Of a stretch of 54,615 bases of DNA, positions 11,531 through 33,598 are shown piece by piece. The first letter of the stretch is position 1. The number at the start of each line of letters is the position of its first letter. Under the pieces are notes generated by a model, which was not told where the DNA came from, ran no database searches, and was given only the letters and a program-made list of their open reading frames with translations. Source of the stretch: Bilabrum cf. latius (Eukaryota); NCBI GenBank assembly GCA_965178125.1, contig CBCXTV010000007.1:1-54615 (forward strand), read 5' to 3'. A program made the translations under genes and the position numbers.

Positions 11531-12624
11531 GTGGGCGACAACGCATGCGCACAAACGGGATTTTCCTGAAAGCCATGTATGAGCGCGCACGTAAAAACGC
11601 GTGAATGCGCGGAACCGAATTTCTACACGCTCGCCTGCATCAAGCATCCAAAATTTCCTCATACGAACTTCGAACCGTGTTTTACGTCGCTCGCAAAATG
11701 AAACGCGACAGCACCATATCAGCATGTCCCCTAATCAATGCTTCGCCCCGCGGTTTCAGAACCTGCCATCCATGCGCATGAATCGGAGACCAAACTTACA
11801 CAGCAAAGAAACAAGGGGGTTAGAAAACAGCGGGAGAAAGCTCAAAACGGCGAAAAATGCGGGACGCACAAACGATGGGAAGGGGGGGGCGAACAAAAGA
11901 AATATCCGTAGGAACACGTCATGTGGTAAAAAAAAAAAAAAATCACTCACAATCCCAAGGGGCCTACATAGGCTCATACATGTTGACACACTGTGCAACA
12001 GCATGATTTTGTCAACCATTATATGACGACATCTGCGAGTTGAGGGCAAAATCGTTTATGCGTTGGATGCAACATTCATGATCACACCGCCGAATATTCC
12101 GAAAATTGCCCTCGTTGTCAGCGACTCTCGGTGGAACGCACGCGTCACCGATGGCCGACTCGTAACAAGAAAATATGAGACATGCTTGCGATCACGTCGG
12201 CGTTTGCTTGGGCTGTGTGCGTACGGAGATTCCCAAACTAGGCTCACGTTAGCCCGAACGACATGATTACGGTTGCAATGACCCAGCGCTATACACGTGC
12301 AACACGTCCTGGGATGTTTCATCACACTGTCGCATAATCAGGCCCATCATGCGAGCCAAAGACACCCCAGGCCTCAAGAATGAGACGGCGAGGACCTGTG
12401 CGACGAGCAAAAGGACCGAGATTTGGGAAAAGAGCGGGGAGGGGTGGGAAGGGGGATAGGCACGAAAAAAAGGGGATCTCCTTCAGGGACGGACAGGGGA
12501 GGAGCGAGACGGGGGATGGGAAAGGGGGACCCGAATTGGGGCCGCAGGAAGGTGACGAATCCGCGGCCCCGACTTCAGGACCGCGGGGCTGGTTTTGAGA
12601 CCGTTTCCGGCCCAGGAAACTGGA

Positions 12625-12667
12625 CACGAAAAAGTGAAGCCCGACAGTCGGGCTTCACTTTTTCGTG
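12625..12667. repeat. Perfect 43-bp palindrome; putative TIR-TIR (circle) junction
   Basis: cacgaaaaagtgaagcccgac-a-gtcgggcttcactttttcgtg: 21-bp arms around a 1-nt centre, followed by ~40 bp of imperfect inverted similarity. The palindrome is certain; its role is inferred. Confidence 0.85.
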
Positions 12668-13024
12668 CTCGCTTTTCGGGGGCGAAAACAGCACCGAAAT
12701 CGAGGCCGTTTTTTGGCGCATGTGGCAGAAATCGAGCAAGCAATGTACACATGATTCCACCTTTGGAAGGACTTACCACCTTCAGTGGCTTCCGTCATAA
12801 TGTTTCAAGTCATAATCAACGAGATCCAGGACGCGACGCCACAACGCATGTGGCCACAACCGACACTTGGCCCCAAACAAACTGTGCTCGAACACCCTCA
12901 AGACCAAACGGCATCCAACTGACCGGAACACGAAATACACGGACCGCTATTTAAGGATCGTCCTGCATAACGAGACAAGCAAACTTACATGACGGACATG
13001 AAACATATCTCGATGCGTCTAACT

Positions 13025-13288
13025 GGCGGAGGGGCGGGCGGACAGGCGAACGGGCGAACAGACGACTGACCGGATGGGCAGCCGGGCGGGCTGGCGGGTG
13101 AGCGGCAGCGGGTGGGCGGGCGAGCGGCCGGATGTACGCGGACAAACGGGCGGGCGATCGAGCGCGGGCGGGCGCGCGGGCGGGCGGGCGGACGGGCGCG
13201 GGCGGGCGGACACGACGGGCGGGCGGGCGCAGGCGGGCAGGCGGGGCGCGGGCGGTCGGGCAGGCGGGCGGGCAGGCAGGCGGGCGGG
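13025..13288 (+). repeat. Degenerate (GGGC)n tract 3 (also ~27711-27975, ~42400-42663)
   Basis: Visible gggc/ggca repeats ~360 bp inside the palindromic junction. Confidence 0.95.
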
Positions 13289-13478
13289 ACGAAATACGAA
13301 AACGGGAAAAAACACGAACGCGCACGGGCTTTTCAAAACACGGCCACAGCCCGAGCCTCGACTGTGATCGTCCGCGCGGGGAGTCCCTGGCGCCGTTCAC
13401 GCCGCCCACTTGAAACGCGCCACGACGGCGGGCGCTGAGGCGACCACGGAGCGGCTCCCCGAACGGCGACAGGCTCGT

Positions 13479-14189
13479 TTACGGGCAAGTGTCGTGCGCC
13501 CCGTCCTCACACCCTGACGAGTCTGTGTCCATCACGGTCGTGATGGGATCCTGTAGTTCCATCGGATGTGTGCACTCCTCAAAATAACCACGCAAATGCT
13601 CCGCTGACTCAGCAAAGACAAGGCCCTCCACCATCTTCTGATTGCCTTGCCCCAGAACAAAAGAGCGAGTGGAGTCTGCGACACAATGCCCAGCATCCAC
13701 GATTCGAACGTTAAGACACACATGAACGTCGACAACGCCCTTCTGGCACATGTTCGACAAGTATGTCTTCGCAGACGTGAAGTCGGAACAGCCGCACCGT
13801 CGGCAAACGATGCGGCCTCGACCACACAAGGTGCGATGCTTCAAATCCGTCAACAATCTATACAATCGTCTGTGCGCCCGCTGCTGACCAGACACTGTAG
13901 TAAGCTGGTCATACGCAACCATCTCATCGCACATGCCGCACATCAAGCTATCCAGACGTAAAAAACAATCCGCAATGTCAGGAATGTGCATACCAGCCGG
14001 CGCCAACACGACTTCGCCAGGCTTTGCGAAAACTAACTTGGCACACCAGTCCCGCTTCTCAGTTGCCACAAGCACGACACCATCCCGGACGTCAAGCTTC
14101 ACTTCCATCACACGCGAATCCGCCTGGCACATCGAGTTCCGCGAGCGTTTCTGCGTCTCTGTCGCCGCTGCATCCGAACTGCAAGCCAT
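13479..14189 (-). CDS. Cys-rich hypothetical protein (~236 aa), possibly zinc-binding
   Basis: Likely start MACSSD in a GCCATGG context; CxxC pairs CGMC and CRRCGC; the only indel between copies is 3 nt and in frame. Confidence 0.65.
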   Translation of the reverse strand: MACSSDAAATETQKRSRNSMCQADSRVMEVKLDVRDGVVLVATEKRDWCAKLVFAKPGEVVLAPAGMHIPDIADCFLRLDSLMCGMCDEMVAYDQLTTVSGQQRAHRRLYRLLTDLKHRTLCGRGRIVCRRCGCSDFTSAKTYLSNMCQKGVVDVHVCLNVRIVDAGHCVADSTRSFVLGQGNQKMVEGLVFAESAEHLRGYFEECTHPMELQDPITTVMDTDSSGCEDGAHDTCP

Positions 14190-15560
14190 GGCACGGGCCG
14201 GACTGGCGAAGAAGGAAACGCGACACGACAGGATGCGAGGTTGGGCCTCCGAAACAGGCAATCTGCCAGCCAAAACGACTGTGCCGTCATGGTCCATTCG
14301 AGTGTAAGGCGTAATCGCATATCACTCAATACCCTTGCAATCACCCTGCATCAACGCATCACGCCTACAATTTTCGTACTGGTTGCGGTCCGATGATGCC
14401 CGACACGCAAACGCTGCGTGCCACAGAGCAATGGATCAATCGCTTGCAGATTCGTCTTCAGCCGACAGCGATGTGAGGGCGAAACTACCCATGCGAAGCC
14501 TCATGTAAAACACAAGCTTTCTACAATGTGATCCGTCATACATACAGGCTCGAACACGCGCCAGTACGCTCCTCCATGGAATCGATGAATAGCGCACTCT
14601 CGTCCGCAGTCTTCGCCCGGCGGACGATCGGCATGCGGATGCATTTGCACATTTATAATGCACAGAGATCCCTGCGCTGATTCTTTGGGAACTGAGATTG
14701 AATGTCATAGCAACTATGAACGCTAAACTGGCAACTTTCCTAATCTCGAAATGACGACGGCGACAGGCTCATTTCGTCATTTCAGCATTGCGCGGATAAC
14801 AATGGCAGAAATCTCATGGCGCAAATATATCGAATGGGACCACGGGCGGGCGGACTGGCACGCGAACAGGCAGGCGGCTAGGACGTGCAGGCGGGCAAAT
14901 GGGCGGGCGTACGGGCGGGCGAGCGGACGAACGGGCGGGCGGGCAGACGGACGGCCGGGCGGGCGGATGCGCGGGCGGGCACGCTGGCGCGCACACGAGC
15001 GAGCGGACGGGTGCGCGGGCGGGCGAACGGACGGGCGGGCGGACGGGCGGGCGGGCGAAGGCGGGACGGGCGAACGGACGGGCGCGCGGGCAGGGACGGG
15101 CGGACGCGCGCCGGCGGCCGCGCGGGCGCGGCGAACGCGCAAACGAGCGCGGGCGGCCGAGCGGGCGCGGTCGGGCGGGCGCGAGCGAGTGGGGCGAGAA
15201 CCCCATGACGAACCCACAGCACGCAATTTCAAACGTCGACCGCACGCCTCGCAAGCAAGCTGTTACGACTGTCACCGCGAAGACGGACCTATACACACAG
15301 TAAAACAACCACAACCGAGATCCATCCCTGCATTCCCTGTACATCCGCAGAGACGAACACACTATCGAGACGGAACGTGCCACACGCACAAGACAGCGGG
15401 GATGGGTAGCAGACTCCTGATCCGTTCTGCCCGACCCGTAGGGCAGTGGGATGAGTAAGGACTCGGGTTCCCATTCAGCCCTGCATGTGGATGGAGCGAC
15501 AACATATTGCTGAAGACATGACTGCAATGTTGTTCATTGCATGCGAAAGGCATATTGTCG

Positions 15561-17228
15561 TCACTCCATCCACAACGGGTCTTTGACCCACACGTATGTC
15601 TGGTTGCCAAGAATCCACGCGCGGTCCTCGGCGGACAACGCTTGGAGAGCCGTGTCCCAATGATTCGATGTGCACACCATGCGTGTTCGATGAGTGAAAA
15701 TTTCATACTCGTAGCAGTTCGTGGACGAACTTGCAAGCTGTACGCGGGCCGTCGACGCCTGAAAAAGCTTCCGCTCCGCCACAACGACCGCGGGACTGAC
15801 CTCGTCGAACAAGATCAATCCGTCCCGTTCCCAGTCAAAATCTTTTAGTGACGGCAACGTCTGGCCCGAAACAATTCACTTCGAACACACGCATGCCTTC
15901 GGGCTGTAACGTCCGCGCGAAGGACGTTTTTCCGGTGCACGTTGGACCGTCCAACACTAGGGAAGCGGTAACGCTGCATCAAAACGCCGTATTGACGGAG
16001 CCAACCTTCGACGTCCGGCAGACTCCTCCACGTGCGACGTTGCAACGCGAAGTGCGCATCAACCGCGCGGCGGTACGCTTCCACGCGCTCGCGCGCGCGC
16101 GCCCGGTCCATGAGACCAAGGGTCGGATAGATACCGAGTCGCACCAATGCCCACGCGCTCAAGAAGCGAACGCGCCGACTCCGTCGACAACTTTTCGCTC
16201 TGGGCCAGCTGCATGACCCACAGCGCGTGCACGGGGTAATCGCGGAACGGCTGCCGGTCGGAATCAGTCCACAGATGACCGACTTTCTCGACACAGCAGT
16301 AAAAGTATGGAAGCCACTCGCCGACACCGTTGCGCGACCGGCCCTCGAAACGTTCGGGAGGTCGCACGTGCGGGGAAACGCCACGAAACGACGTTGCCCC
16401 GTGACTGAGCACGCGAAGGAAACCGGGCACCGCACCTCGGAGAAAGCACACGTGAAAATGCACTTGAGCGCTCCCGCTCTCGGTGAAAGGTCTGCGGACA
16501 TATCTCCGCACAGATGGCCCGGTGCGTTGCTCCGATGAACTCCCCAAGCGCGTGCGCATAGAACACCAAACGTCGTGCCAGAGACGCACAACGTCGGCAC
16601 GACGCATAAGCAAAAGCGCAGCGTCGTCAACGCACGCGCACGGCACGCACCTCCGCATCCGCAAAAAGCCATTCTGCGGAAATGAAGGTCAGAAAAGTCC
16701 TACGACGCGCGCCACATGACTCCTTGTGAGGCATCAGGAGATCGGCGACTGGATCGCGGTCTATGTTGGCCGCCGTCAGGTACAACTGCGACACGGCCTT
16801 CTTCGCTTCCAAAGACAATGAAGCGAACTTGACACGAAATTCACGGAAAGACTTCGCACTCGTCAGGGACGGCCCCTGCACCGCCACAGGCATCTCCAAA
16901 CCTCTCTGGACGGCTCGCATAGAAACAGACGTGTCCGACCGCTCAAAAAGTCCCGACGCTGCCTGATGGTCCGGTCCTGCATGCTCTGCACCGTCGGAAT
17001 ATCGCCCAAGGACGCCGCTAAAACCTTCCACTGGGCAAAAGGCTCCTGAGCGGAACTATCAGTTGAGACAGCAGCTCCAGAAGAAGAAGACGACGTGGAC
17101 GGAGTTTGCGCGACGTCGATATATGACGACGCCAGAACACCCTTCGCAGACATACGCCGGCGCTTCAACTTGGGCGACGACGCGACAGCCACGTCATCCG
17201 ACGACGGCGCGGATGACGATACATTCAT
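15561..17228 (-). pseudogene. rep: CRESS-like Rep, copy 2, multiple frameshifts
   Basis: Rep motifs are split over ORFs 15561..15857, 15845..16672, 16059..16664 and 16627..17031 by small indels. Confidence 0.8.
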
Positions 17229-18426
17229 CGTCACAGGGACAAGGGAAACACAATGAATGCGAGGGACACACGACACTAGGCCAAACAGCATGGGATTCCG
17301 ACACCGTGCACAAGAACTCGAGCAACAACGCATCTGACCATGCCACACCATTCGACTTCTGCCGGGACCGTCGCAGTCCGTCACACGACCCTGCTCGGAT
17401 GCCCCTGACAGCCGCCGCAAACGCCTCTGTGGGAACTAGGATATCCGCCACAAGACCCGGGCACGCGTGCCCGAGGGGACCCTTCGGTCCCGCAAGAGAG
17501 ACGGGGTCCCACCATGTCCTGACGTTTCATGAACGCCGCAAGACCCGGGCCCGGGTCTTCTGTCCCACATGACACCTTCCACCATCATTGACGTCCCACC
17601 TATCTGCCCCCTCCCACCATGACATCCCAATCATCCACCAATTACCCGCGTTAACCCGCCACACACCACCTGGGGTTGCATCCTTATCCCAACACGTACC
17701 CACCCTTCTCTCTAAGAGTGCTTCTTTTCCCGAATGCCTTTGTCTCTCATGGTCAAAATCCGTGTGCAGCATACAACACATATGACTCCCCCTCGAACTC
17801 GTGGGACACCACGTTCCGGAACACAACTCCTCCACCAACACATGCATAACACTGCCGCCTAGTTTGCGCGGGAACCCTTGCAATGAGGTGAAATCGACGC
17901 AGGCGAAATCCAGAAAGGCCTTGTGGCGACCCCTCTTTTCGCGTCTTTTTGGCCCCCAAAGGGGGTGCCACGGCCCCCTTTTTTTACTCGGCAAAAAGCG
18001 GTGTCACCATTCTCGGCCCTTAAAAATATTAATATGGCGGCGGCACCGCTTTGGGGACACCATGGTTTTTTTCGAGCAAAATGGCCTGTTTTCCTTGTAA
18101 ACCCCTAAAAAACACAGGACGGCGGTGGCACCGCATTTTTTCGAGTGAAATGGCCTTCCCTTTGAGAACTGATTTTCGAAAAAAAAAACTCCCTCTTTGA
18201 TGGTTTCTGTGCTTTTATTCTTGGTCAATCGTGGTGTTTAAACTGTATGTTGAGAACTTTTTGCCGTATTTCGAGTTCACTTTGGGCATTGAAGACTGAC
18301 ATTTTGTAGTTTTCCGCTTCTATGTTGGTTCTTTTTTCTGCGTCAGTTCGTGTGCGGTGTGTTTCGACTGATGGGAATGTGCGTGCTTCCTGCTGACAAT
18401 ACGGGTGCTCTCCGAGCGGCGCCCGT

Positions 18427-18918
18427 TCAACCCTTCTTGGCTTTTGCCTTCGCTGTACGGGCCCTGACAGCCGTCGCGGAGACTGCGTCTCCGGAGGAAC
18501 CGGGTCGCGCCTGCGGAGGATTCTGTCGCATCTGCAGCACTGCGACGAGATCCTCGTCGTTCAACTGACGCGCCTTGCGCTTCAGTCTCGCCTTTCTTCT
18601 CTCTGCGTTTTTGAGGTTCTTCGCGACCTCCTTCTTCAGGTCGCGCGCTCTGTTTTTCTCCGCTCTCATGCGGTCGATGTACTCGAGCAAAGTCTCAGCG
18701 CTCTCTACCATTGCCGGAGGCTTTGGTCGGTCCGATGCCTCCGATTTTGCCGGCGCTGCTTCTACCTCTTGCGCTTCTGCTGTGACCATTACAGCTTCTT
18801 CGCCTTTGTCGATGACGGCATCGACGGACGTGGTCCCAGGCGCACCCCCCGGGGATCGCGGTGGCGAGACGGTTCCGTGATCGCTGTCGGCGTCGCTGGT
18901 GGCGTCCTGGGTCGCCAT
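18427..18918 (-). CDS. Basic coiled-coil hypothetical protein, copy 2
   Basis: Identical translation to 3733..4224. Confidence 0.75.
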   Translation of the reverse strand: MATQDATSDADSDHGTVSPPRSPGGAPGTTSVDAVIDKGEEAVMVTAEAQEVEAAPAKSEASDRPKPPAMVESAETLLEYIDRMRAEKNRARDLKKEVAKNLKNAERRKARLKRKARQLNDEDLVAVLQMRQNPPQARPGSSGDAVSATAVRARTAKAKAKKG

Positions 18919-20701
18919 GGCGCCGGTGTGCTGGGCTTTGGGACTAACTCGGCTGACGCTGTCGCGGCCGCCGCGCGTCGGGTGGCAATAGGGGAACGCT
19001 CAGCCCGACGTCGGTATGTCATGCGATGCGCGCGTGGAATGTTATGCATTCGCGGGCCATGCAGCAGAGTTGCGAAAACAGCATCGATGTCGACAATGCT
19101 ACGATCCGGGAAGACACTTTGTAAATCATGGAACGATGGCCACTCATGCACATCCTCGGGCACTGTTTGCCACTGCAGTAAGCTGAGAACGCGTTTTGAC
19201 ACACCTACTTGCGAGCCGTCAAGCCCATTGCTGTGGAATGCTTGATCCCACGTGCGTCGCCGTATGACACGTTCGAATGCCGTCAGCACGGCGTGGAAAA
19301 GCGCATGTGGCCATCGCTCGCGCGGCAGCGCGCGCGCGATGCGGAGCTGATATTCATGTTCTATGGCGCGCTTGTAAATTGCGAAGACGTGCGTGTCGCA
19401 AGGCTGGAGCGCCCACGTCATTTTCGCGGGGATTAAATGGTAGTGGAAATTGAGTCGAGATGCCGTATGCCACACGGCGCGACCCAGGTGAGCTCGATAC
19501 GTGTCCGCGCTAACAGTAAAATGATGCGTGTCTCGGAATGCATGGACGGCATCCGCGAGCACGCGCAGCGCGCGACACATTAATTTGGTGGTCATCCACC
19601 CCTTTGCGCCTCGCAAGAGAAGCACATTCGGAGGGAGCGCGAGGCGGAGCGCGTCAAATTGCTCGCGACTCACAATGCGGTCTGAGAAGAGGAATATGGT
19701 CGGCAAGTGCGGTTGGATGTCGCTGTTGTTGGCGATGCAGACGATTTGTGTGATCATGCTCCGCATCTCACGTTTCGGGGTCGGTTGACGCAAGCCTCCC
19801 GCTGCGCGAACTCGGCGTCGGGCCTCTTCCACAAGAAAACCTGCCTGTGAAACTGCCGTCAGCCGGATGCTCGTTTCGTCCATGTTCACGTGGACCGGGC
19901 ACTTGTCCGGCGGCGCGAAGGCCCGCAAGAAGTTGCACCATTTCCACACCGCACGTGCCTCGAAATTCGTTTGGGTCGGCTTTTTGCTCAAATTTGGGGG
20001 GCGTTTTCCGGGTCCAGAGTGTATTTGTTCTATATGTGAGGACCCCGAAACCAGGGCCGCTATATGGCCCCGTTTTGGGTTTCCTTCGTGAAACGTCGGA
20101 CGTGTTTTTGCCACTGTCCGGTGGCCTTTAGGCGTCGTCGATCCACACATTCTGCATCGAGTCGAGGCACGGCTCCGAGCGACACCTGCCAGCGTCGCCG
20201 CCAGCGTCGGCACCACTGTCGGATGCTTTGTCTTCTTCTAGATGCCTCGGGTCCTGCTCCTGCGGATCGGTACCCGTGAGCCTGCGTAATCTCGAGAAAA
20301 ACGTTCGTCGTCGGCGCGAGTGTATTGGCGAAGTTCTGCTCGTGAACCCACCTGTGCAGATTATGTTCTCGCAAGAACCGCGATGTCATCGTGGCAGCTT
20401 GTAGACGCTCTGGCGTCCATGGACGTTGTTGCTCTCGGAGCACACCGTCTTCCGTAAGAGTAGCGTGCCATGCACGAAGATTTGCGATCGCGTCGTCAAG
20501 AGTCGGAACCGGTGCATTCCGCCACTTCTGACGCAGATAAGCTTCTGCGGTGACGACGTCGACGATGACCGCCAAAAAGCGGGCGTGCCCCTCCAGTTGT
20601 GCTATGCGAGCTGTTTGCCGCCGGTGTTGCTCTCTGGCACGACGAACTGCTTGCTGAAGCGTCCGCATCGCGTTCGCGAGCGACGCGATTGTCGCTTCCA
20701 T
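18789..20701 (-). CDS. pogo-like DD35D transposase, copy 2 (exons 20701-20126, 19958-18789)
   Basis: Both ORF translations are identical to copy 1. Confidence 0.88.
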
Positions 20702-22767
20702 GGCCCGAGTATGGTGGTACGATTCGATCGTACACAGCGAAGGAGGATGTGTCTCGAGTCGAGAGCAATGCGGGGCGAGCCACTGATGGGAAGTTTCATG
20801 TCAAGGCCCATTTCCGACAGTGCGCTCGATCCTGAGCCCCCTTTCGAACATGCGCCCGTGCATTGGTGCATGGTATCGGTGTGTCGCGTGCACTTTTGTG
20901 CTGTCGTTGCTCGGCCGGTCGTTCGTGTGCAAATGTCCGCGCGCCCCTGCCGTGCGCGGTAGACTTGCGGGTGATTTCACTTTCCCGGAATTGATTGCCG
21001 GAGCGATTATGCCTGATCGATTCTGCGAGCATGCTGAGATGGAAATGAAGACGGCGACGGGCTCGTTTCATCATTTCGATATGGTGGAGATGGGCACAAC
21101 GAAACTGTCGTTTCGCCAACGTCACCAGTGGGCGGGCGGGCGGGCAAGCGGGTGGGCTGGCGGGCGGTCGGGCGTGCGGGCGGGCGGGCGTGCGGGCGGG
21201 CGGGCGGGCGGGTGGGCGGGCGGGCGGGCGGGCGGGCGCGCGGGCGGGCGGGCGGGCGGGCGGGCGGGCGGGCGCTCGGGTGGGCGGGCGGGCGCCCGGA
21301 CGGGCGGGCGGTCGCCTGCGCGGGCGGGCGGGCGGACGAGCGGGCGGACGGGCGGGCGGGTGGGCGGGCGCGGGCGGGCGGGCGGGCGGGTCCTTGCGGG
21401 TGGGCGGTCGGACGCTGGTGGGCGGGCGGGCCGGCGTGCGCGGGCGCGCGGGCGCTGGCGGGCGGGCGGGCGGGTCCGGGCGGGCGAGCACGTTTACCGC
21501 CAAACATAACGAACCCTTGATTGCGCAACGGAGATACTGACGACATGAGACCACTTTATACGCGGGACGGCTGAAGGCTCGTTTCCCGGCTGAAGATGGA
21601 GCCGTGATGGTTTCTTCCTCGGCTGAAAATCTCGAAAGCATGTGCATTGACTTACAAGCCTTGGCATCCCAGATCGTGTCACACCTTACACACGACCCAC
21701 ACGGTTCCGGATGCGCCCTGGGGTGGTCGGGGCTGCGGGACGGGAGACCGGTGGGAGGGAGTGAGAAGTATGTGGATGGGGGGTGGCTTGGTCGTGCGCG
21801 TGGGTGTGTCGGGGCGGGTGGGTGGGGATGAACGTGGTGGGACGAGGAAAGGGTTAGGACGGATGGTCGGGCGTGTGGTTGCCTGTGGATGATGTCGGAG
21901 CGCGTCACTTGCGCTCGATCCAAGTCGGTTTCGCGCGCCTGAGTTGCGTAGCCGTGCTGGCGACGCACCGTCCGGTGAGCTTGTTCCGTCCTCGCGCCTT
22001 GTTGCCGTCGACGGCTGCCTCGGCGGCAAAGGTGCCGGCCGGCGACTCCAGTGCGCGTGCAACCCGTTCGCGTTCCGCAGTCGTGGTCCAATGCCGTCAC
22101 TCGCAGCGTATCGGAGCGCGACCTCAATATGCTAGCGTGCTTGTCGCGAGCTCGCACACACACATTCGCTGGCCGTGTCATGGTTTGCGCAGCATGGTCG
22201 GCTGTTACGCAAATCGGTTCTTTGTGCGGTCTTCGTCGCACTGACATGACAACGAATGCACCCTGACTACTTGCGGTTCTCGACATAACCCGACAGTATT
22301 CATGCTGCGACCGGAACATGCGAGACCTAAAAATAACCGACAAGCCGGATGATTGTGGAGCGCCGGGTTCGGTTCTCGTGCGGTCGCTTATCCTATAGTG
22401 GTATGGAAGATTTGAGCGTTTTGCATCACCGGGCTTTTCCCGTGCCTGGTGCAAATCGGCTGCTCGAAACGACTCTGGGCTGGCGGTGGGGAGGCCCGGA
22501 TAGTGGCGGGATGATGCTGGTGGGGGGGGTGTCGATGGAGTGTGCGTGGGGTCAGTCGGGGCGGGAGGCGGGGCTGGTGATGGTAAGGGGGGGGAGATGG
22601 TGGAGCGGACAAATCGCGCGGATGGTCACCTGCACAAAATGTCGGAACGCATGAGATGTGACTGGTCCATTACGCGTTCGCATTTCCCATGTTATCTAGG
22701 TCTGCTGATTGCGCAGCATCATGCGGGACAAGAGTCTCTCTGAAGGCCTCGCCGTCGTCGACGGTTG

Positions 22768-24869
22768 TCACTGCGGCAGCGGCACCGGCTGCCGGCTCCA
22801 GCGCGCGTACGCCACGTTCGCGTCCAGCGGCTGCCGCTGGATGCTGTTCCGCGCGGCGTACACGAAGTCAGCCTTTGTATGCTAGCGTGCTACCCGGCAA
22901 CCCTCACACGTGCGCACGCGTTCGCATCGTGCGGACACGGTTGGCCGCAAGATAGTCCGGCCTTTGTCGAGCCACTGTTGCTTCGACATGAAAACGATGC
23001 CATTTTGGAGTGTGGCGCGGACTGGCGTGACGTCATTGTCGAATGCTATCATCGCAACACTCATGTGCCGAAATTGTTTTGATAGGTTCCTGAATTGTGG
23101 AGTCCCCTGTTTCGCCTCCGTCGGGTTGCGCACCCAGTAGCGGTACCCGAAGCTCTGGCCGATCTGTCTCAAACGGCGCTGCTCGCGCTTGGTGCGCGGC
23201 GCCCCTGACGAGTCGGCACCGGCGGTTTCGACGGTGGGATCGGCGGCAGAAGGCTCGTTCCGACCCGACCGTCCGCCGCCTTTTCCCTTGCGGCCGCGGC
23301 CTTTCGTCGTGGACGACTGCGCCTCGCCTGTGATGTGATGGACGCCCGCCCTCCCCCCGTTTTTTTCAGCGCTATAGCACGGACGTTTCAACTCCTTAGC
23401 CCCAAAAGAAAAAGGAAAATCGGCCACCTTCGTCGCGCGTCGGCGGCCGCAGCGCCCGCGGATCGGCGAACCAAGCGTCCGCGTCCGCTGGGCCTACGGC
23501 CCACGCTGGCATGGGCTCCGGGAACGCCCAATGGCTGAGCCATCGGTGCGCGGCCGGCGTAGGCGCGTCGGCCAGCGTCGCGAGACGTTGGCACTTGCCC
23601 TTCTTCTCGAAGCTCGCGAGGAACTTCTGCCGTTCGCGGGGGTCTTGACTGCGGCGCGTTCCTGGGCACACCCAACGTTCTGTCCACGCGGACGGGCGCA
23701 CCCAACCTGGTCCATGTGCAGTGTCGCAATGGGACACATGCTCCACGCAGGCGCCGATTCCGGGCACGACGTAGCACGCTCGGGCCGCTCGGCCCTTGGT
23801 TCCAAGGAACCATTTCAAGTCCAGGTCCCAGTGCCCTCGGGTTCCCCCGAGTTCATCGGGTTTCTTCATGGACTCCATCATCGTCGTCGCGCCGCTCTTC
23901 GTCACCATGATGAACTGCGATCCGAAGCCAAACTGTGCCTCATCGCGCACGTTCTGTCCCGGCTGGCCGCACGCCCACCCGCTCCAAACGATATCACCGC
24001 AGCTCGCACGATGCGCTTGCGTTGCTATGGCGCACACATCTTCTAGAACTTGTGGGCACGCGATGTGGCGTTCCGTCGGCCGCAACTGGATCGCGACGAA
24101 GTGGCCCGCCTTCGATATGGGTGCGACAACTTCGAGAAATGGAAAGAAGATGCGTACTCATGCACGTGCACGTCGCGTCAGTTCGTCGGCGACTGTGCGA
24201 TCATCACAGGTGGCGAAAGGCTCATGCCTGTCCTTTCTTCACGCTATCATGCCTACTGACCCTTCCCCCTTCAAAAAATACGTGCTCATCCGCCTGTTTC
24301 AGCCGTCGGTCCGGCTGCGGTTGCTGAGCCACCGCAGGGGGCTGGAGGCTCCTGCCTGCGTCGCGCATCGCCTGCAGCTCCAGCGCCACGCTTCCGCGTG
24401 GTCTCGGCGCCGGCGCCGCGTCCGGCTCGAAGCGAAAATCCTCTTCGAAGCACAAAAAGAGGACGTCATCGGGCCAACGCTCGTCGAGCGCCAGCGGGAT
24501 GAAGTAGTCCTGAGCATACGACATGGGGTCACTGGCATGTACTATTGCGCGTATACGCCACCGCTGGCACGACTGTTGTCGGCGACAATGGCACATCACG
24601 TCAAATGCTGATACCAAACACGATCCACACTGTGATGACTCCATGCTTTCCTAATGCGTGCTACCATCCTCCCACCAGCTTCGCACTGTCGTCGACCGAT
24701 CGCATCCTGGTTGCAACGCGGTCGTCCGCGCAATGCAAACCAGTGGTTGCAGCGGCAGTAGCTTCTCCGCCAGGTATGTCCCGGCGTCGTTTGGGTCGGC
24801 GCCGAAGTGCGTCACAATCAGCGCCTGGAATAAGAAATGGTCCGATTGCTCAAAAAGCCAATGAGACAT
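22768..24869 (-). CDS. Multi-exon GT-like gene, copy 2
   Basis: Same ORF pieces as copy 1; the T-tract length difference falls inside a predicted intron. Confidence 0.5.
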
Positions 24870-27310
24870 GTGACGAGCTTATGCACGGGACGGCGGTAGG
24901 CTCGTTTCCCGGCATGTAACGGGGCGGCAAGGGCTCGTTCCCCGGTTCACAATTGCGAAAGTTCGTGCATTGACCGACATGTCCTGTCCCGTGAAATCAC
25001 GCCACACATCACAGCTCCTCGAAATGGCGTAAGACCCAATGCTCGGCACAAAAGAATGCGTGTCATGTTACGACTGCTTCATGGGAGCACCACGACTGGC
25101 CGACCGTTCACCATGTGGACGAACCTCTGCGGCTCGAAGTCCGCATAGGTACTTCTGTTGCGCGTGAGATGACCGATCTCATCACGCGCTGACAATCCGG
25201 CATCGACAAGAGTGTCATCGAAATCGATGACGAGACTATCGCTCGCGCTGGCTCTGCTTCCTGCGGCGCGACTTCCGGCCGGTGTCGGCGCTCCGCGACG
25301 CTCCTGCAGCGTGGCCTCCCCGCTGCGCTGGAGCTCCGTCGCGTGCGCTGCGTGGACCGGCAGCCATGTGCCGCCGATGCCTTCGTCGGGCTGACGCTTC
25401 TTCCTCTTCGGCATCGGTGTGCGAAGACGCGCGTGGGCCCGGACGGAATCCATCCCAGTAAAGAAATGACGCGATAAGCGCGGGCGGACATGGATTCCGC
25501 AGCGTTCACATACGTCAGCACATGTTATGTCACGACATGTATATGTGCAATCTGCATCTTACGCATACACCAGCATTTCCGACATGTTTCATGCTGTGAA
25601 ACAAAACCAATCGCCAAATACCCGCAACAAATGAAAATTGGAAATTTCAACGCTCATATGCATAAAATGACAATGTGCATCATCCTCGAGTTGAACAGCT
25701 GCCCGCTGCAGGAGTCGTGAAGGCGCCGACGGCATCCACGCCATCGCACGCGCCCGCGCGCCGGACCCCTCTGGACATGACGCCGAACCACGGCGAAAGG
25801 CTCGTTTAGTTCGACGCGATCACTCACCGCATCAGCCGCCGCGGCGCTGCCACACAGGCGCCGGGGGTGAGCGCGATCGACCGCTGGTCGAGTCCGCGCT
25901 GCGGCGCGCCGCGCGCCGCGCCTCGCCAGCGCGGCGCTCGTCGTTCCACAACTCGCCGCTCGGGGGGACGGTGCCATCTCCGGCACGTCCAGCCACGAAG
26001 GGAAGAAACTCCGCGCCGTTGATGCGCGCATGCAACGTGAGCACACCCGGCGGGCGCTCGACGTTAACGCGCCACGTTGTCCGCACCACCAGTCTGGTGC
26101 TTCCGTCGTCCTGCCGCTCACCGAGACAAGTCACGGAATCGACAGTAAGGGCACCACTCTGGGTGCCGACTTGCCGCTGCAATAGGGCTGTGACCCAACG
26201 CGCGTGGGTATCGCTCGCCATGTGGGCGACAACGCATGCGCACAAACGGGATTTTCCTGAAAGCCATGTATGAGCGCGCACGTAAAAACGCGTGAATGCG
26301 CGGAACCGAATTTCTACACGCTCGCCTGCATCAGCATCCAAAATTTCCTCATACGAACTTCGAACCGTGTTTTACGTCGCTCGCAAAATGAAACGCGACA
26401 GCACCATATCAGCATGTCCCCTAATCAATGCTTCGCCCCGCGGTTTCAGAACCTGCCATCCATGCGCATGAATCGGAGACCAAACTTACACAGCAAAGAA
26501 ACAAGGGGGTTAGAAAACAGCGGGAGAAAGCTCAAAACGGCGAAAAATGCGGGACGCACAAACGATGGGAAGGGGGGGGCGAACAAAAGAAATATCCGTA
26601 GGAACACGTCATGTGGTAAAAAAAAAAAATCACTCACAATCCCAAGGGGCCTACATAGGCTCATACATGTTGACACACTGTGCAACAGCATGATTTTGTC
26701 AACCATTATATGACGACATCTGCGAGTTGAGGGCAAAATCGTTTATGCGTTGGATGCAACATTCATGATCACACCGCCGAATATTCCGAAAATTGCCCTC
26801 GTTGTCAGCGACTCTCGGTGGAACGCACGCGTCACCGATGGCCGACTCGTAACAAGAAAATATGAGACATGCTTGCGATCACGTCGGCGTTTGCTTGGGC
26901 TGTGTGCGTACGGAGATTCCCAAACTAGGCTCACGTTAGCCCGAACGACATGATTACGGTTGCAATGACCCAGCGCTATACACGTGCAACACGTCCTGGG
27001 ATGTTTCATCACACTGTCGCATAATCAGGCCCATCATGCGAGCCAAAGACACCCCAGGCCTCAAGAATGAGACGGCGAGGACCTGTGCGACGAGCAAAAG
27101 GACCGAGATTTGGGAAAAGAGCGGGGAGGGTGGGAAGGGGGATAGGCGCGAAAAAAAGGGGATCTCCTTCAGGGACGGACAGGGGAGGAGCGAGACGGGG
27201 GATGGGAAAGGGGGACCCGAATTGGGGCCGCAGGAAGGTGACGAATCCGCGGCCCCGACTTCAGGACCGCGGGGCTGGTTTTGAGACCGTTTCCGGCCCA
27301 GGAAACTGGA

Positions 27311-27353
27311 CACGAAAAAGTGAAGCCCGACAGTCGGGCTTCACTTTTTCGTG
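27311..27353. repeat. Perfect 43-bp palindrome; putative TIR-TIR junction (copy 2)
   Basis: Identical to 12625-12667. Confidence 0.85.
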
Positions 27354-28163
27354 CTCGCTTTTCGGGGGCGAAAACAGCACCGAAATCGAGGCCGTTTTTT
27401 GGCGCATGTGGCAGAAATCGAGCAAGCAATGTACACATGATTCCACCTTTGGAAGGACTTACCACCTTCAGTGGCTTCCGTCATAATGTTTCAAGTCATA
27501 ATCAACGAGATCCAGGACGCGACGCCACAACGCATGTGGCCACAACCGACACTTGGCCCCAAACAAACTGTGCTCGAACACCCTCAAGACCAAACGGCAT
27601 CCAACTGACCGGAACACGAAATACACGGACCGCTATTTAAGGATCGTCCTGCATAACGAGACAAGCAAACTTACATGACGGACATGAAACATATCTCGAT
27701 GCGTCTAACTGGCGGACGGGCGGGCGGACAGGCGAACGGGCGAACAGACGACTGACCGGATGGGCAGCCGGGCGGGCTGGCGGGTGAGCGGCAGCGGGTG
27801 GGCGGGCGAGCGGCCGGATGTACGCGGACAAACGGGCGGGCGATCGAGCGCGGGCGGGCGCGCGGGCGGGCGGGCGGACGGGCGCGGGCGGGCGGACACG
27901 ACGGGCGGGCGGGCGCAGGCGGGCAGGCGGGGCGCGGGCGGTCGGGCAGGCGGGCGGGCAGGCAGGCGGGCGGGACGAAATACGAAAACGGGAAAAACAC
28001 GAACGCGCACGGGCTTTTCAAAACACGGCCACAGCCCGAGCCTCGACTGTGATCGTCCGCGCGGGGAGTCCCTGGCGCCGTTCACGCCGCCCACTTGAAA
28101 CGCGCCACGACGGCGGGCGCTGAGGCGACCACGGAGCGGCTCCCCGAACGGCGACAGGCTCGT

Positions 28164-28871
28164 TTACGGGCAAGTGTCGTGCGCCCCGTCCTCACACCCT
28201 GACGAGTCTGTGTCCATCACGGTCGTGATGGGATCCTGTAGTTCCATCGGATGTGTGCACTCCTCAAAATAACCACGCAAATGCTCCGCTGACTCAGCAA
28301 AGACAAGGCCCTCCACCATCTTCTGATTGCCTTGCCCCAGAACAAAAGAGCGAGTGGAGTCTGCGACACAATGCCCAGCATCCACGATTCGAACGTTAAG
28401 ACACACATGAACGTCGACAACGCCCTTCTGGCACATGTTCGACAAGTATGTCTTCGCAGACGTGAAGTCGGAACAGCCGCACCGTCGGCAAACGATGCGG
28501 CCTCGACCACACAAGGTGCGATGCTTCAAATCCGTCAACAATCTATACAATCGTCTGTGCGCCCGCTGCTGACCAGACACTGTAAGCTGGTCATACGCAA
28601 CCATCTCATCGCACATGCCGCACATCAAGCTATCCAGACGTAAAAAACAATCCGCAATGTCAGGAATGTGCATACCAGCCGGCGCCAACACGACTTCGCC
28701 AGGCTTTGCGAAAACTAACTTGGCACACCAGTCCCGCTTCTCAGTTGCCACAAGCACGACACCATCCCGGACGTCAAGCTTCACTTCCATCACACGCGAA
28801 TCCGCCTGGCACATCGAGTTCCGCGAGCGTTTCTGCGTCTCTGTCGCCGCTGCATCCGAACTGCAAGCCAT
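28164..28871 (-). CDS. Cys-rich hypothetical protein, copy 2
   Basis: Lies within ORF 28164..28979. Confidence 0.65.
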   Translation of the reverse strand: MACSSDAAATETQKRSRNSMCQADSRVMEVKLDVRDGVVLVATEKRDWCAKLVFAKPGEVVLAPAGMHIPDIADCFLRLDSLMCGMCDEMVAYDQLTVSGQQRAHRRLYRLLTDLKHRTLCGRGRIVCRRCGCSDFTSAKTYLSNMCQKGVVDVHVCLNVRIVDAGHCVADSTRSFVLGQGNQKMVEGLVFAESAEHLRGYFEECTHPMELQDPITTVMDTDSSGCEDGAHDTCP

Positions 28872-30240
28872 GGCACGGGCCGGACTGGCGAAGAAGGAAA
28901 CGCGACACGACAGGATGCGAGGTTGGGCCTCCGAAACAGGCAATCTGCCAGCCAAAACGACTGTGCCGTCATGGTCCATTCGAGTGTAAGGCGTAATCGC
29001 ATATCACTCAATACCCTTGCAATCACCCTGCATCAACGCATCACGCCTACAATTTTCGTACTGGTTGCGGTCCGATGATGCCCGACACGCAAACGCTGCG
29101 TGCCACAGAGCAATGGATCAATCGCTTGCAGATTCGTCTTCAGCCGACAGCGATGTGAGGGCGAAACTACCCATGCGAAGCCTCATGTAAAACACAAGCT
29201 TTCTACAATGTGATCCGTCATACATACAGGCTCGAACACGCGCCAGTACGCTCCTCCATGGAATCGATGAATAGCGCACTCTCGTCCGCAGTCTTCGCCC
29301 GGCGGACGATCGGCATGCGGATGCATTTGCACATTTATAATGCACAGAGATCCCTGCGCTGATTCTTTGGGAACTGAGATTGAATGTCATAGCAACTATG
29401 AACGCTAAACTGGCAACTTTCCTAATCTCGAAATGACGACGGCGACAGGCTCATTTCGTCATTTCAGCATTGCGCGGATAACAATGGCAGAAATCTCATG
29501 GCGCAAAGATATCGAATGGGACCACGGGCGGGCGGACTGGCACGCGAACAGGCAGGCGGCAGGACGTGCAGGCGGGCAAATGGGCGGGCGTACGGGCGGG
29601 CGAGCGGACGAACGGGCGGGCGGGCGGACGGACGGCCGGGCGGGCGGATGCGCGGGCGGGCACGCTGGCGCGCACACGAGCGAGCGGACGGGTGCGCGGG
29701 CGGGCGAACGGACGGGCGGGCGGACGGGCGGGCGGGCGAAGGCGGACGGGCGAACGGACGGGCGCGCGGGCAGGGACGGGCGGACGCGCGCCGGCGGCCG
29801 CGCGGGCGCGGCGAACGCGCAAACGAGCGCGGGCGGCCGAGCGGGCGCGGACGGGCGGGCGCGAGCGAGTGGGGCGAGAACCCCATGACGAACCCACAGC
29901 ACGCAATTTCAAACGTCGACCGCACGCCTCGCAAGCAAGCTGTTACGACTGTCACCGCGAAGACGGACCTATACACACAGTAAAACAACCACAACCGAGA
30001 TCCATCCCTGCATTCCCTGTACATCCGCAGAGACGAACACACTATCGAGACGGAACGTGCCACACGCACAGGACAGCGGGATGGGTAGCAGACTCCTGAT
30101 CCCGTTCTGCCCGACCCGTAGGGCAGTGGGATGAGTAAGGACTCGGGTTCCCATTCAGCCCTGCATGTGGATGGAGCGACAACATATTGCTGAAGACATG
30201 ACTGCAATGTTGTTCATTGCATGCGAAAGGCATATTGTCG

Positions 30241-31707
30241 TCACTCCATCCACAACGGGTCTTTTACCCACACGTATGTCTGGTTGCCAAGAATCCACGC
30301 GCGGTCCTCGGCGGACAACGCTTGGAGAGCCGTGTCCCAATGATTCGATGTGCACACCATGCGTGTTCGATGAGTGAAAATTTCATACTGGTAGCAGTTC
30401 GTGGACGAACTTGCAAGCTGTACGCGGGCCGTCGACGCCTGAAAAAGCTTCCGCTCCGCCACAACGACCGCGGGACTGACCTCGTCGAACAAGATCAATC
30501 CGTCCCGTTCCCAGTCAAAATCTTTTAGTGACGGCAACGTCTGGCCCGAACAATTCACTTCGAACACACGCATGCCTTCGGGCTGTAACGTCCGCGCGAA
30601 GGACGTTTTTCCGGTGCACGTTGGACCGTCCAACACTAGGAAGCGGTAACGCTGCATCAAAACGCCGTACTGACGGAGCCAACCTTCGACGTCCGGCAGA
30701 CTTCTCCACGTGCGACGTTGCAACGCGAAGTGCGCATCAACCGCGCGGCGGTACGCTTCCACGCGCTCGCGCGCGCGCGCCCGGTCCATGAGACCAAGGT
30801 CGGATAGATACCGAGTCGCACCTATGCCCACGCGCTCAAGAAGCGAACGCGCCGACTCCGTCGACAACTTTTCGCTCTGGGCCAGCTGCATGACCCACAG
30901 CGCGTGCACGGGGTAATCGCGGAACGGCTGCCGGTCGGAATCAGTCCACAGATGACCGACTTTCTCGACACAGCAGTAAAAGTATGGAAGCCACTCGCCG
31001 ACACCGTTGCGCGACCGGCCCTCGAAACGTTCGGGAGGTCGCACGTGCGGGGAAACGCCACGAAACGACGTTGCCCCGTGACTGACCACGCGAAGGAAAC
31101 CGGGCACCGCACCTCGGAGAAAGCACACGTGAAAATGCACTTGAGCGCTCCGCTCTCGGTGAAAGGTCTGCGGACATATCTCCGCACAGATGGCCCGGTG
31201 CGTTGCTCCGATGAACTCCCCAAGCGCGTGCGCATAGAACACAAACTCGTGCCAGAGACGCACAACGTCGGCACGACGCATAAGCAAAAGCGCAGCGTCG
31301 TCAACGCACGCGCACGCACGCACCTCCGCATCCGCAAAAAGCCATTCTGCGGAAATGAAGGTCAGAAAAGTCCTACGACGCGCGCCACATGACTCCTTGT
31401 GAGGCATCAGGAGATCGGCGACTGGATCGCGGTCTATGTTGGCCGCCGTCAGGTACAACTGCGACACGGCCTTCTTCGCTTCCAAAGACAATGCAGCGAA
31501 CTTGACACGAAATTCACGGAAAGACTTCGCACTCGTCAGGGACGGCCCCTGCACCGCCACAGGCATCTCCAAACCTCTCTGGACGGCTCGCCATAGAAAC
31601 AGACGTGTCCGACCGCTCAAAAAGTCCCGACGCAATGCCTGATGGTCCGGTCCTGCATGCTCTGCACCGTCGGAATATCGCCCAAGGACGCCGCTAAAAC
31701 CTTCCAC
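30241..31707 (-). CDS. rep: CRESS/geminivirus-like replication initiator (HUH endonuclease + SF3 helicase), catalytic core intact
   Basis: Motif I TFLTF, motif II VHFHVCF, GRS-like FRGVSPHV, motif III-like YFYCCVEK, Walker A GPTCTGKT, Walker B LILFDE and motif C VCTSN, in canonical order. The true N-terminus is uncertain; a Ser-rich extension to 31904 is out of frame in this copy. Confidence 0.9.
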   Translation of the reverse strand: MEGFSGVLGRYSDGAEHAGPDHQALRRDFLSGRTRLFLWRAVQRGLEMPVAVQGPSLTSAKSFREFRVKFAALSLEAKKAVSQLYLTAANIDRDPVADLLMPHKESCGARRRTFLTFISAEWLFADAEVRACACVDDAALLLMRRADVVRLWHEFVFYAHALGEFIGATHRAICAEICPQTFHRERSAQVHFHVCFLRGAVPGFLRVVSHGATSFRGVSPHVRPPERFEGRSRNGVGEWLPYFYCCVEKVGHLWTDSDRQPFRDYPVHALWVMQLAQSEKLSTESARSLLERVGIGATRYLSDLGLMDRARARERVEAYRRAVDAHFALQRRTWRSLPDVEGWLRQYGVLMQRYRFLVLDGPTCTGKTSFARTLQPEGMRVFEVNCSGQTLPSLKDFDWERDGLILFDEVSPAVVVAERKLFQASTARVQLASSSTNCYQYEIFTHRTRMVCTSNHWDTALQALSAEDRAWILGNQTYVWVKDPLWME

Positions 31708-33103
31708 TGGGCAAAAGGCTCCTGAGCGGAACTATCAGTTGAGACCGCAGCTCCAGAAGAAGAAGACGACGTGGACGGAGTTTGCGCGACGTCGATATAT
31801 GACGACGCCAGAACACCCTTCGCAGACATACGCCGGCGCTTCAACTTGGGCGACGACGCGACAGCCACGTCATCCGACGACGGCGCGGATGACGATACAT
31901 TCATCGTCACAGGGACAAGGGAAACACAATGAATGCGAGGGACACACGACACTAGGCCAAACAGCATGGGATTCCGACACCGTGCACAAGAACACGAGCA
32001 ACAACGCATCTGACCATGCCACACCATTCTACTTCTGCCGGGACCGTCGCAGTCCGTCACACGACCCTGCTCGGATGCCCCTGACAGCCGCCGCAAACGC
32101 CTCTGTGGGAACTAGGATACCCGCCACAAGACCCGGGCACGCGTGCCCGAGGGGACCCTTCGGTCCCGCAAGAGAGACGGGGTCCCACCATGTCCTGACG
32201 TTTCATGAACGCCGCAAGACCCGGGCCCGGTCTTCTGTCCCACATGACACCTTCCACCATCATTGACGTCCCACCTATCTGCCCCCTCCCACCATGACAT
32301 CCCAATCATCCACCAATTACCCGCGTTAACCCGCCACACACACCACCTGGGGTTGCATCCTTATCCCAACACGTACCCACCCTTCTCTCTAAGAGTGCTT
32401 CTTTTCCCGAATGCCTTTGTCTCTCATGGTCAAAATCCGTGTGCAGCATACAACACATATGACTCCCCCTCGAACTCGTGGGACACCACGTTCCTGAACA
32501 CAACTCCTCCACCAACACATGCATAACACTGCCGCCTAGTTTGCGCGGGAACCCTTGCAATGAGGTGAAGTCGACGCAGGCGAAATCCAGAAAGGCCTTG
32601 TGGCGACCCCTCTTTTCGCGTCTTTTTGGCCCCCAAAGGTGGTGCCACGACCCCCTTTTTTTACTCGGCAAAAAGCGGTGTCACCATTCTCGGCCCTTAA
32701 AAATATTAATATGGCGGCGGCACCGCTTTGGGGACACCATGGTTTTTTTCGAGCAAAATGGCCTGTTTTCCTTGTAAACCCCCAAAAAACACAGGAAGGC
32801 GGTGACACCGCATTTTTTTCGAGTGAAATGGCCTTCCCTTTGAGAACTGATTTTCGAAAAAAAAACTCCCTCTTTGATGGTTTCTGTGCTTTTATTCTTG
32901 GTCAATCGTGGTGTTTAAACTGTATGTTGAGAACTTGTTGCCGTATTTCGAGTTCACTTTGGGCATTGAAGACTGACATTTTGTATTTTTCCGCTTCTAT
33001 GTTGGTTCTTTTTTCTGCGTCAGTTCGTGTGCGGTGTGTTTCGACTGATGGGAATGTGCGTGCTTCCTGCTGACAATACGGGTGCTCTCCGAGCGGCGCC
33101 CGT

Positions 33104-33598
33104 TCAACCCTTCTTGGCTTTTGCCTTCGCTGTACGGGGCCCTTTGACAGCCGTCGCGGAGACTGCGTCTCCGGAGGAACCGGGTCGCGCCTGCGGAGGA
33201 TTCTGTCGCATCTGCAGCACTGCGACGAGATCCTCGTCGTTCAACTGACGCGCCTTGCGCTTCAGTCTCGCCTTTCTTCTCTCTGCGTTTTTGAGGTTCT
33301 TCGCGACCTCCTTCTTCAGGTCGCGCGCTCTGTTTTTCTCCGCTCTCATGCGGTCGATGTACTCGAGCAAAGTCTCAGCGCTCTCTACCATTGCCGGAGG
33401 CTTTGGTCGGTCCGATGCCTCCGATTTTGCCGGCGCTGCTTCTACCTCTTGCGCTTCTGCTGTGACCATTACAGCTTCTTCGCCTTTGTCGATGACGGCA
33501 TCGACGGACGTGGTCCCAGGCGCACCCCCCGGGGATCGCGGTGGCGAGACGGTTCCGTGATCGCTGTCGGCGTCGCTGGTGGCGTCCTGGGTCGCCAT
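33104..33598 (-). CDS. Basic coiled-coil hypothetical protein, copy 3
   Basis: Same ORF with a net +1 codon. Confidence 0.75.
   Translation of the reverse strand: MATQDATSDADSDHGTVSPPRSPGGAPGTTSVDAVIDKGEEAVMVTAEAQEVEAAPAKSEASDRPKPPAMVESAETLLEYIDRMRAEKNRARDLKKEVAKNLKNAERRKARLKRKARQLNDEDLVAVLQMRQNPPQARPGSSGDAVSATAVKGPRTAKAKAKKG

Follow-up and report, generated by a model that had tools for sequence, protein, structure and literature searches.

A tandemly repeated 14.7-kb unit that pairs a CRESS-like Rep with a pogo-type transposase: a probable new family of replicative-integrative elements

The 54,615-nt stretch of Bilabrum cf. latius DNA analysed here over its whole length (contig CBCXTV010000007.1, hereafter the window) consists of about 3.7 head-to-tail copies of a ~14.69-kb unit, which encodes a predicted Rep protein with an HUH nuclease and a superfamily 3 (SF3) ATPase, a putative pogo-type transposase and a third conserved gene, XY. 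This unit is a probable new family of replicative-integrative elements whose mechanism we infer; what we observed directly are the identities of its proteins, a conserved gene order, the array and a conserved palindrome at the junctions between units. According to our preferred reading, to which we assign a probability of roughly 70%, Rep and transposase have been co-inherited over a long time in a single composite element family.

The repeated structure extended over the entire window, where families of direct repeats recurred four times with a spacing of 14,673-14,694 nt, in agreement with the ~14.7-kb repeating unit described in an initial annotation of this DNA. Units were delimited at the junction centres (12645, 27332 and 42020), which gave two complete units on the minus strand, unit 2 (12645-27332, 14,687 nt), the one to which that annotation referred, and unit 3 (27333-42020, 14,688 nt), flanked head to tail by the partial units 1 and 4. 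Units 2 and 3 shared 99.24% identity and were separated by 54 mismatches and 40 gap openings, and unit 3 was 97.3% identical to the partial unit 4. The GC content of the window was 55-68%, and an Rfam scan of one unit gave 0 matches. All open reading frames (ORFs) backed by homology, namely Rep, the transposase, XY and an ORF overlapping the transposase 3' end, were on the minus strand, as had been annotated.

The Rep ORF was located through a scan of the window for the Walker A pattern. Its best copy, in unit 3 (30244-31731, minus strand; P0001, 496 amino acids), has a twin in unit 4 (44933-46420, minus strand) and comprises an HUH-Y1 nuclease, a helical linker and an SF3-type ATPase; the 477-residue core is unbroken in these two units only (30250-31650 and 44939-46339). 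The N-terminal part of Rep, with a Ser-rich region and a KRRR motif, lies at 31620-32111 (minus strand) and is in a single frame in unit 1, and the Rep gene of unit 2 (15570-17219, minus strand) is split across three frames. A word-index search with Rep returned three relatives, and an exhaustive profile search returned 2,083 cluster representatives with E values of at most 1e-3, of which 570 reached 1e-30 or better. In an alignment of 45 sequences, the invariant positions included T124 (motif I), E184, H199 and H201 (HUH) and Y252 and K257 (motif III) in the nuclease, and K375 (Walker A), E417 (Walker B) and N463 (motif C) in the ATPase. Only one tyrosine, Y252, was invariant; Y250 is replaced by F in P0006. 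The HUH motifs I-III and Walker A, B and C motifs first annotated in Rep were thus recovered, and in the unit then named the gene is frame-shifted.

In the AlphaFold model of Rep (mean pLDDT 89.4), motif I and HUH belong to strands (120-132 and 196-205), whereas the tyrosine is part of a helix (244-254). Foldseek ranked AAV2 Rep68 at the top of the solved structures (E 6.7e-8, 481 columns), followed by Vientovirus Rep, papillomavirus E1 and B19 NS1, and against predicted viral structures the best match reached E 2.4e-13 over ~400 columns; 25 of the 50 viral matches listed carried a name, and all 25 were Rep, NS1 or E1, mostly of CRESS-DNA viruses. VIA-align picked mainly the ATPase domain (PCV2 Rep ATPase, Z 10.5, root-mean-square deviation 2.9, 123 aligned; E1, Z 11.0) and scored SF3 proteins on a par with generic AAA+ proteins (Z 10-12). 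The SF3 assignment is therefore based on the Foldseek ranking, motif C and the domain order. Judged by predicted fold and invariant residues, Rep is an HUH-Y1 plus SF3 protein, the matches to AAV Rep68 and CRESS-virus Reps spanning both domains and the HUH fold being seen in the whole-chain search.

Sequence searches of Pfam, PDB sequences and PHROGs gave no replication-family match for Rep. The initial annotation had named domains for hidden Markov model searches: DDE_1 was matched by the transposase, but Viral_Rep and Gemini_AL1 were matched by none of the 45 Rep family members at E 0.01 or better, and P0001 matched neither at E 1 or better. In addition, tblastn of Rep against phage and plasmid collections gave no match, and no Rep relatives were found in IMG/VR or, with a 4-sequence alignment as query, in 185,579 prokaryote genomes. 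The Rep cores of units 3 and 4 differed at 10 of 1,488 nt (8 of the 10 within the first 112 nt), and the transposase ORF and XY differed by 2.8% and 4% between the same units; gene conversion or selective constraint are possible explanations for this low divergence of Rep, for which dN/dS was 0.95, a value without power at 10 differences. The Walker A pattern was also matched at a second site, as GPYSEGKS, in units 1, 2 and 4 (3769, 18463 and 47828, minus strand), where a short frame lies downstream of the transposase; this site has no further ATPase features and is probably due to chance.

The catalytic ORF of the transposase is at 18789-20237 (minus strand), with other copies at 33472-34917 and 4098-5543. 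Its match to Pfam DDE_1 was barely over the cutoff (22.8 bits, cutoff 22; E 7.5e-5). It scored 368 bits against a profile built from 28 homologues, which were retrieved by a word-index search with the transposase of a diverged locus, L005 (see below), and 27 of which carry PF03184. Counted on the translation, the catalytic triad reads VNMDETS, SADTYR and, with a spacing of 35 residues, PCDTHVF, that is DD35D, and the same spacing was counted in the L005 transposase. As far as can be told from sequence, the enzyme is therefore what the initial annotation had called it, a pogo-type DD35D transposase of the DDE_1 family.

A helix-turn-helix region is predicted in an N-terminal ORF (20060-20800, minus strand), which overlaps the catalytic ORF in another frame. 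Its W-rich motif, RQWCRRWRRRWQVSLG, aligns with KQWVRRWRKRWGVQLG in L005, whose transposase scored 19.2 bits for HTH_Tnp_Tc5, below the cutoff of 22.2; a Pfam scan of the window ORFs gave no match to an N-terminal CENP-B/Tc5-type DNA-binding domain. Because the N-terminal and catalytic ORFs overlap in different frames, the predicted transposase must be joined by an intron or frameshift in every copy. A further ORF overlaps the 3' end of the transposase in another frame (18427-18999, minus strand; 33107-33679 in unit 3 and 6801-7310 in L005); it is kept in L005 at 52.6% identity over 57 amino acids and could represent a C-terminal exon or the product of a frameshift. The sequence of this ORF is basic and coiled-coil-like.

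The third conserved gene, XY (22882-25558, minus strand), is found in pieces at 25079-25558, 24222-24650 and 23396-24157, with a tail at 22882-23493. The family comprises nine relatives (P0155-P0163), with His, Asp, Cys and Trp among its invariant positions. A Pfam search of XY gave no match, an Atlas search hinted weakly at Glyco_transf_25 (at rank 10 with a score of 0.89, in 15% of members) and the AlphaFold model had a pLDDT of 50.

Linkage of the three genes was followed in 17 Rep-relative loci found by scanning metagenome contigs from JGI/ENA. Only in L005, from a 17.7-kb contig, does the sequence continue for more than 2.5 kb beyond Rep in the upstream direction, the remaining contigs being of 1.4-4.6 kb; profile searches found the transposase in 1 and XY in 2 of the 17. 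L005 carries XY, the transposase (a 692-codon open frame, DDE_1 at 33 bits) and Rep (a 667-codon open frame) in the window's order and on one strand, with 2.4 kb between transposase and Rep and with identities to the window of 33.9% for XY, 30.9% for the transposase and 33.8% for Rep. A link between Rep and transposase in a diverged family, which the initial annotation had put forward as a check, was thus found in the single locus long enough to reveal it. Since order, strand and a similar divergence of the three genes are shared with L005, a recent chance insertion does not account for the arrangement. In line with the earlier view that neither gene is nested in the other, a search of the unit found no inverted repeats that bracket the transposase, the closest pair (27 nt, 81%) lying within both coding regions. 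Taken with the order XY-transposase-Rep kept in L005, this lack of flanking inverted repeats makes a chance nested insertion unlikely. In pairwise comparisons of the window, L005 and another locus, L009, the identities of both Rep and XY all fell within 27-39% and gave no common branching order.

Two of these loci showed additional features. L005 has ~600-nt direct repeats, 80-86% identical (1689-3441, 4127-4262 and 12744-13182), placed upstream of the transposase and again past Rep at the contig end. In L011 (1-3303) the final 27 nt are the first 27 nt of the contig, and its end matches (91%) the part of Rep immediately preceding the part at its start; L011 may be a small circular or tandem derivative with the helicase half of Rep only.

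The units meet at a palindrome (12603-12689, with further copies at 27289-27375 and 41964-42076). Each junction reads CACGAAAAAGTGAAGCCCGAC-A-GTCGGGCTTCACTTTTTCGTG, a perfect palindrome of 21+1+21 nt, or one with 43-nt arms at 81%. The window contained three copies of its 13-nt core (0.01 expected), and among the 17 Rep loci only L009 had it, in a single copy. In L009, whose Rep is 35% identical, the palindrome sits between Rep and XY, 0.7 kb downstream of the former, and has the form AAAAAGT(n)CCCGAC-A-GTCGGG(n)ACTTTT, with the core and outer parts as in the window and different inner arms; the order Rep-palindrome-XY is that of the window read through the junction. Folded as single-stranded DNA (ssDNA), the junction palindrome reached -41.2 kcal/mol (z -6.5) with a loop of ~3 nt. 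We consider it a candidate for abutted terminal inverted repeats and/or a replication origin. Both arms are together wherever the site occurs, which would fit abutted transposon ends, as in tandem or circular copies, and equally an internal origin of a circular replicon. Because no solo end or target duplication was seen, a transposon with terminal inverted repeats and a circular or concatemeric replicon are indistinguishable at this site.

Of eight loci inspected for palindromes, three had one; a third lineage, comprising L007 and L015, has an unrelated palindrome, with 57-nt arms and a TA centre, 1.3 kb downstream of Rep. In L015 the stretch of 262 nt that bears it (1642-1903) has flanks that recur 1.7 kb downstream at 72-79% identity, and there the flanks are separated by just 20 unrelated nt (3334-3353). 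Because the flanks recur around these unrelated nucleotides, the lineage of L015 also has a version of the site without the palindrome. A search of IMG/VR with the palindrome pattern gave 11 matches, a number within a rough chance estimate, and none had Rep, transposase or XY nearby. A second palindrome in the window (32204-32255) was rejected since it folds like shuffles (z -0.11), as were iterons beside the junction, where there were merely two-copy direct repeats of 8-13 nt, indistinguishable from chance.

The family is highly repeated and diverse. Twenty runs belonging to 11 studies contained all or part of the stretch 28000-35000; their labels name nine coded organisms and marine sediment metagenomes. 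When contigs of four runs (X1, X5, X6 and X9) were mapped onto unit 3, they covered 29 or 30 of its 30 depth bins in each run. In run X1, 26,393 contigs matched, 5,881 at 99% or more, 7,694 at 95-99% and 12,818 at 90-95%. Summed contig depth, which is not copy number, peaked over the transposase segment in all four runs. Contigs of X1 and X5 diverged from the unit inside the transposase gene, at 34650-34652, with an identical loose-end sequence; this break is possibly a nested insertion common to some copies.

These features would be explained by one co-inherited mobile element of a GC-rich eukaryote, and not by two elements meeting by chance. Inverted termini of 21-43 nt would be recognised by the transposase, which would cut and paste the element. 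Once brought together end to end, whether through excision as a circle or through tandem copying, the termini would form the conserved palindrome, and a Rep nick at or near it would start rolling-circle replication. This would yield head-to-tail concatemers with the same one-base spacer at every junction, and integration of such a concatemer, or over-replication in situ, would leave arrays like that of the window. For this full model, in which the ends double as an origin and rolling-circle concatemers seed the arrays, and of which we infer every mechanistic step, the odds appear to fall a little short of even. Its broadest form, an undescribed eukaryotic superfamily that unites a pogo-type transposase with a CRESS-like rolling-circle Rep and makes its origin from its own joined ends, is possible and should be taken as tentative.

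Several observations weigh against this reading. The junction spacer is a single A/T, versus the TA expected of pogo, and a hairpin loop of ~3 nt is atypical for a Rep nick site. No free end or half-site beside foreign DNA was found in the window or the Rep loci, and no target-site duplication, circle or ssDNA was seen. The transposon bounded by terminal inverted repeats of the initial annotation is therefore not supported as such: inverted arms exist, as the junction palindrome, but with no solo end, no TA duplication and a spacer of one base. Excision as a circle and amplification by Rep, likewise proposed there, are hypothetical. The array is not a fresh concatemer, because its units differ by 0.8-3%. 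No copy in the window is open throughout, all four having frame breaks: frameshifts break Rep in units 1 and 2, in units 3 and 4 its N-terminus and core occupy different frames (by frameshift or intron), the transposase needs its frame switch in all copies, and that of unit 3 has an additional A at 34986. Furthermore, the family-wide linkage has n = 1, because only one of the 17 Rep loci extends far enough upstream, the other 16 being too short to reveal a transposase, and in L015 the 3.2 kb that follow Rep downstream contain no XY. In the L005 Rep itself, Ala replaces the second Gly of Walker A and Ser replaces the Asn of motif C, and this protein may not be an active helicase.

An integrated 14.7-kb circular replicon, plasmid- or virus-like and replicated by Rep, with the palindrome as an internal origin, the pogo-type enzyme as an integrase only and the arrays as integrated concatemers, is an alternative that we consider unlikely. 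The order Rep-palindrome-XY continues across the junction in two lineages (the window and L009), junctions always have both arms and no half-site was found; the excerpt of 10.64898/2026.10.13.758929 reports tandem integration of small eukaryotic double-stranded DNA (dsDNA) viruses as well as lineages with circovirus Rep-like nickases. However, no capsid or packaging gene was recognised by Pfam among the window ORFs, the remaining ORFs have no Pfam match and there is no relative in IMG/VR. Also counting against such a replicon, Walker A is present in Rep in all four copies, whereas the second site occurs in three of four only and in a short frame. The 0.8-3% divergence of units and the 12,818 of 26,393 X1 contigs that are only 90-95% alike fit a long genomic residence.

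A Rep captured as a passenger from a CRESS-like virus or plasmid by a pogo-like transposon, with no role in mobility, and arrays generated by unequal crossing-over or segmental duplication, would account for a different set of observations. In two contigs of X1 a joint links 27633 to 32022, and an equivalent joint (42322-to-32022) was found in one contig each of X5, X6 and X9; the segment skipped (27634-32021, minus strand, 4,388 nt) contains Rep and three downstream ORFs. Because this Rep-less variant recurs in all four runs, Rep is dispensable for the persistence of at least some copies, which is a further point against our preferred reading. In X6 the contig with the Rep-less joint had a depth of 776, versus 118-470 in most bins of the Rep segment, depth being a poor measure of copy number. 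The frame-shifted Rep of units 1 and 2 and the two deviant ATPase positions in L005 would also be expected of a passenger. On the other hand, XY, transposase and Rep have kept order and strand at ~31-34% identity, with long open frames in L005, the catalytic residues are invariant across the Rep family, and the Rep core differs less between units 3 and 4 (10 of 1,488 nt) than transposase and XY (2-4%). In addition, the borders of the 4,388-nt segment have no terminal repeats and no duplication, and because the L005 Rep occupies the window's position we read the Rep-less variant as a probable deletion derivative that spread. A passenger Rep also seems unlikely. Lastly, an ordinary host tandem gene array with domesticated Rep and transposase genes would fit single-strand genes in head-to-tail repeats, but is highly improbable given the copy-specific frame breaks, the tens of thousands of diverged contig fragments with many deletion joints and the occurrence of the family in 11 studies, under the labels of nine coded organisms and of sediment metagenomes.

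The remainder of the unit was less informative. Several cargo genes had been annotated, and of these XY is conserved, but the other ORFs (13479-14321, 14814-15533 and similar) had no relatives in the loci examined and no Pfam match; for the ORF at 28167-29003, an Atlas search gave no usable match. Three blocks of a (GGGC)n microsatellite (27833-27974, 29582-29861 and 35811-36171) recur at equivalent positions in each unit and give rise to long spurious Pro/Ala/Arg-rich ORFs. Contigs from other runs showed numerous joints linking these three blocks, which suggests recombination or assembly confusion there.

Compared with known systems, the composite element that we propose resembles pogo/Tigger elements (Tc1/mariner superfamily) in its DDE_1 core and its DDD triad with 35-residue spacing, and possibly also in an N-terminal Tc5/CENP-B-like helix-turn-helix (under the cutoff in L005, at 19.2 bits) and in short inverted termini, which are plausible here and seen only as abutted palindromes. 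It differs from them in the 14.7-kb unit, the two further conserved genes, the one-base A/T spacer in place of TA and the occurrence of termini in abutted form only. Rep has in common with CRESS-DNA virus Reps and parvovirus Rep/NS1, its best structural matches, a one-tyrosine HUH nuclease, a helical linker and an SF3 ATPase in a single chain, but it has no sequence-level membership, its motif III is Y-x4-K and it has an N-terminal extension of ~110-250 amino acids. The CRESS-DNA viruses have a small circular ssDNA genome, a capsid gene and a nonanucleotide stem-loop, whereas here a 14.7-kb unit is repeated in tandem as dsDNA, no capsid gene or nonanucleotide stem-loop was recognised and the palindrome has a loop of ~3 nt.

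Polintons/Mavericks and casposons are self-synthesising transposons that likewise combine a replication protein with a DDE-type or other integrase and inverted termini. In those elements protein-primed PolB is combined with an rve integrase or Cas1, and capsid genes are carried by most polintons, whereas here a rolling-circle initiator would work with a pogo transposase and no morphogenetic genes were found by Pfam. Among the hallmarks of polintons and polinton-like viruses, namely a double jelly-roll capsid, a packaging ATPase and pPolB or a primase-helicase, none was matched by Pfam in the other ORFs. Teratorn, a piggyBac fused to a herpesvirus, also joins a cut-and-paste transposase to a replicon, with different enzymes, size and host. 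The bacterial insertion sequences IS30 and IS911 form circle junctions from abutted inverted ends, a reactive junction comparable to the one proposed here, although enzymes, sizes and hosts differ. An excerpt of PMC11296320 serves as a source on Polintons/Mavericks and casposons as self-synthesising transposons, and tandem integration has been reported for polinton-like elements (10.64898/2026.10.13.758929, excerpt).

Helitrons and Replitrons are, like our unit, eukaryotic mobile elements with an HUH Rep, and palindromes near their ends are common (PMC10288648, excerpt). The same excerpt describes a two-tyrosine Rep with a fused SF1B helicase for Helitrons and the lack of a helicase for Replitrons, in agreement with the contrasts drawn in the initial annotation; a DDE transposase is encoded by neither. 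A Helitron was rejected because Y252 alone is invariant and the ATPase matches SF3/AAA+ and not SF1 (Pif1), and a Replitron because Rep has a conserved C-terminal P-loop ATPase. HUH initiators that serve dsDNA genomes far over CRESS size have been described, in part of the text of each source, for the mriyaviruses, dsDNA viruses of 35-45 kb (10.1101/2024.02.29.582850), and for a polinton-like virus lineage with circovirus Rep-like nickases, DDE integrases being mainly associated with pPolB (10.64898/2026.10.13.758929). Unlike our unit, these viruses encode capsids, span 14-45 kb and are not reported in those excerpts to have a pogo-type transposase together with Rep. Since these excerpts provide precedent for dsDNA elements that combine an HUH/Rep-like initiator with integration functions, the new class proposed in the initial annotation exceeds the evidence. 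A full-text search of the literature, limited to main texts without supplements and in part to excerpts, returned no description of an HUH plus SF3 Rep with a pogo/DDE_1 transposase in one element. A replication protein and an integrase in one element is a known design, and the pairing of Rep with a pogo-type enzyme appears to be new.

In the known eukaryotic elements that replicate as well as integrate themselves, the integrase is accompanied by a DNA polymerase or by a viral replicon, as in Polintons and Teratorn and, among prokaryotes, in casposons. If our reading is true, a rolling-circle initiator with a transposase of the Tc1/mariner superfamily would constitute a third route for self-copying integrative elements. 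It would also offer a mechanistic origin for long, uniform tandem arrays of transposons, which would be the genomic footprint of the process, and would establish a more direct tie between CRESS-like Reps and transposons than the one provided by Helitrons or Replitrons. Because so large a Rep family (2,083 representatives) is missed by Pfam and PDB sequence searches, it represents a sizeable blind spot in the annotation of eukaryotic and metagenomic DNA.

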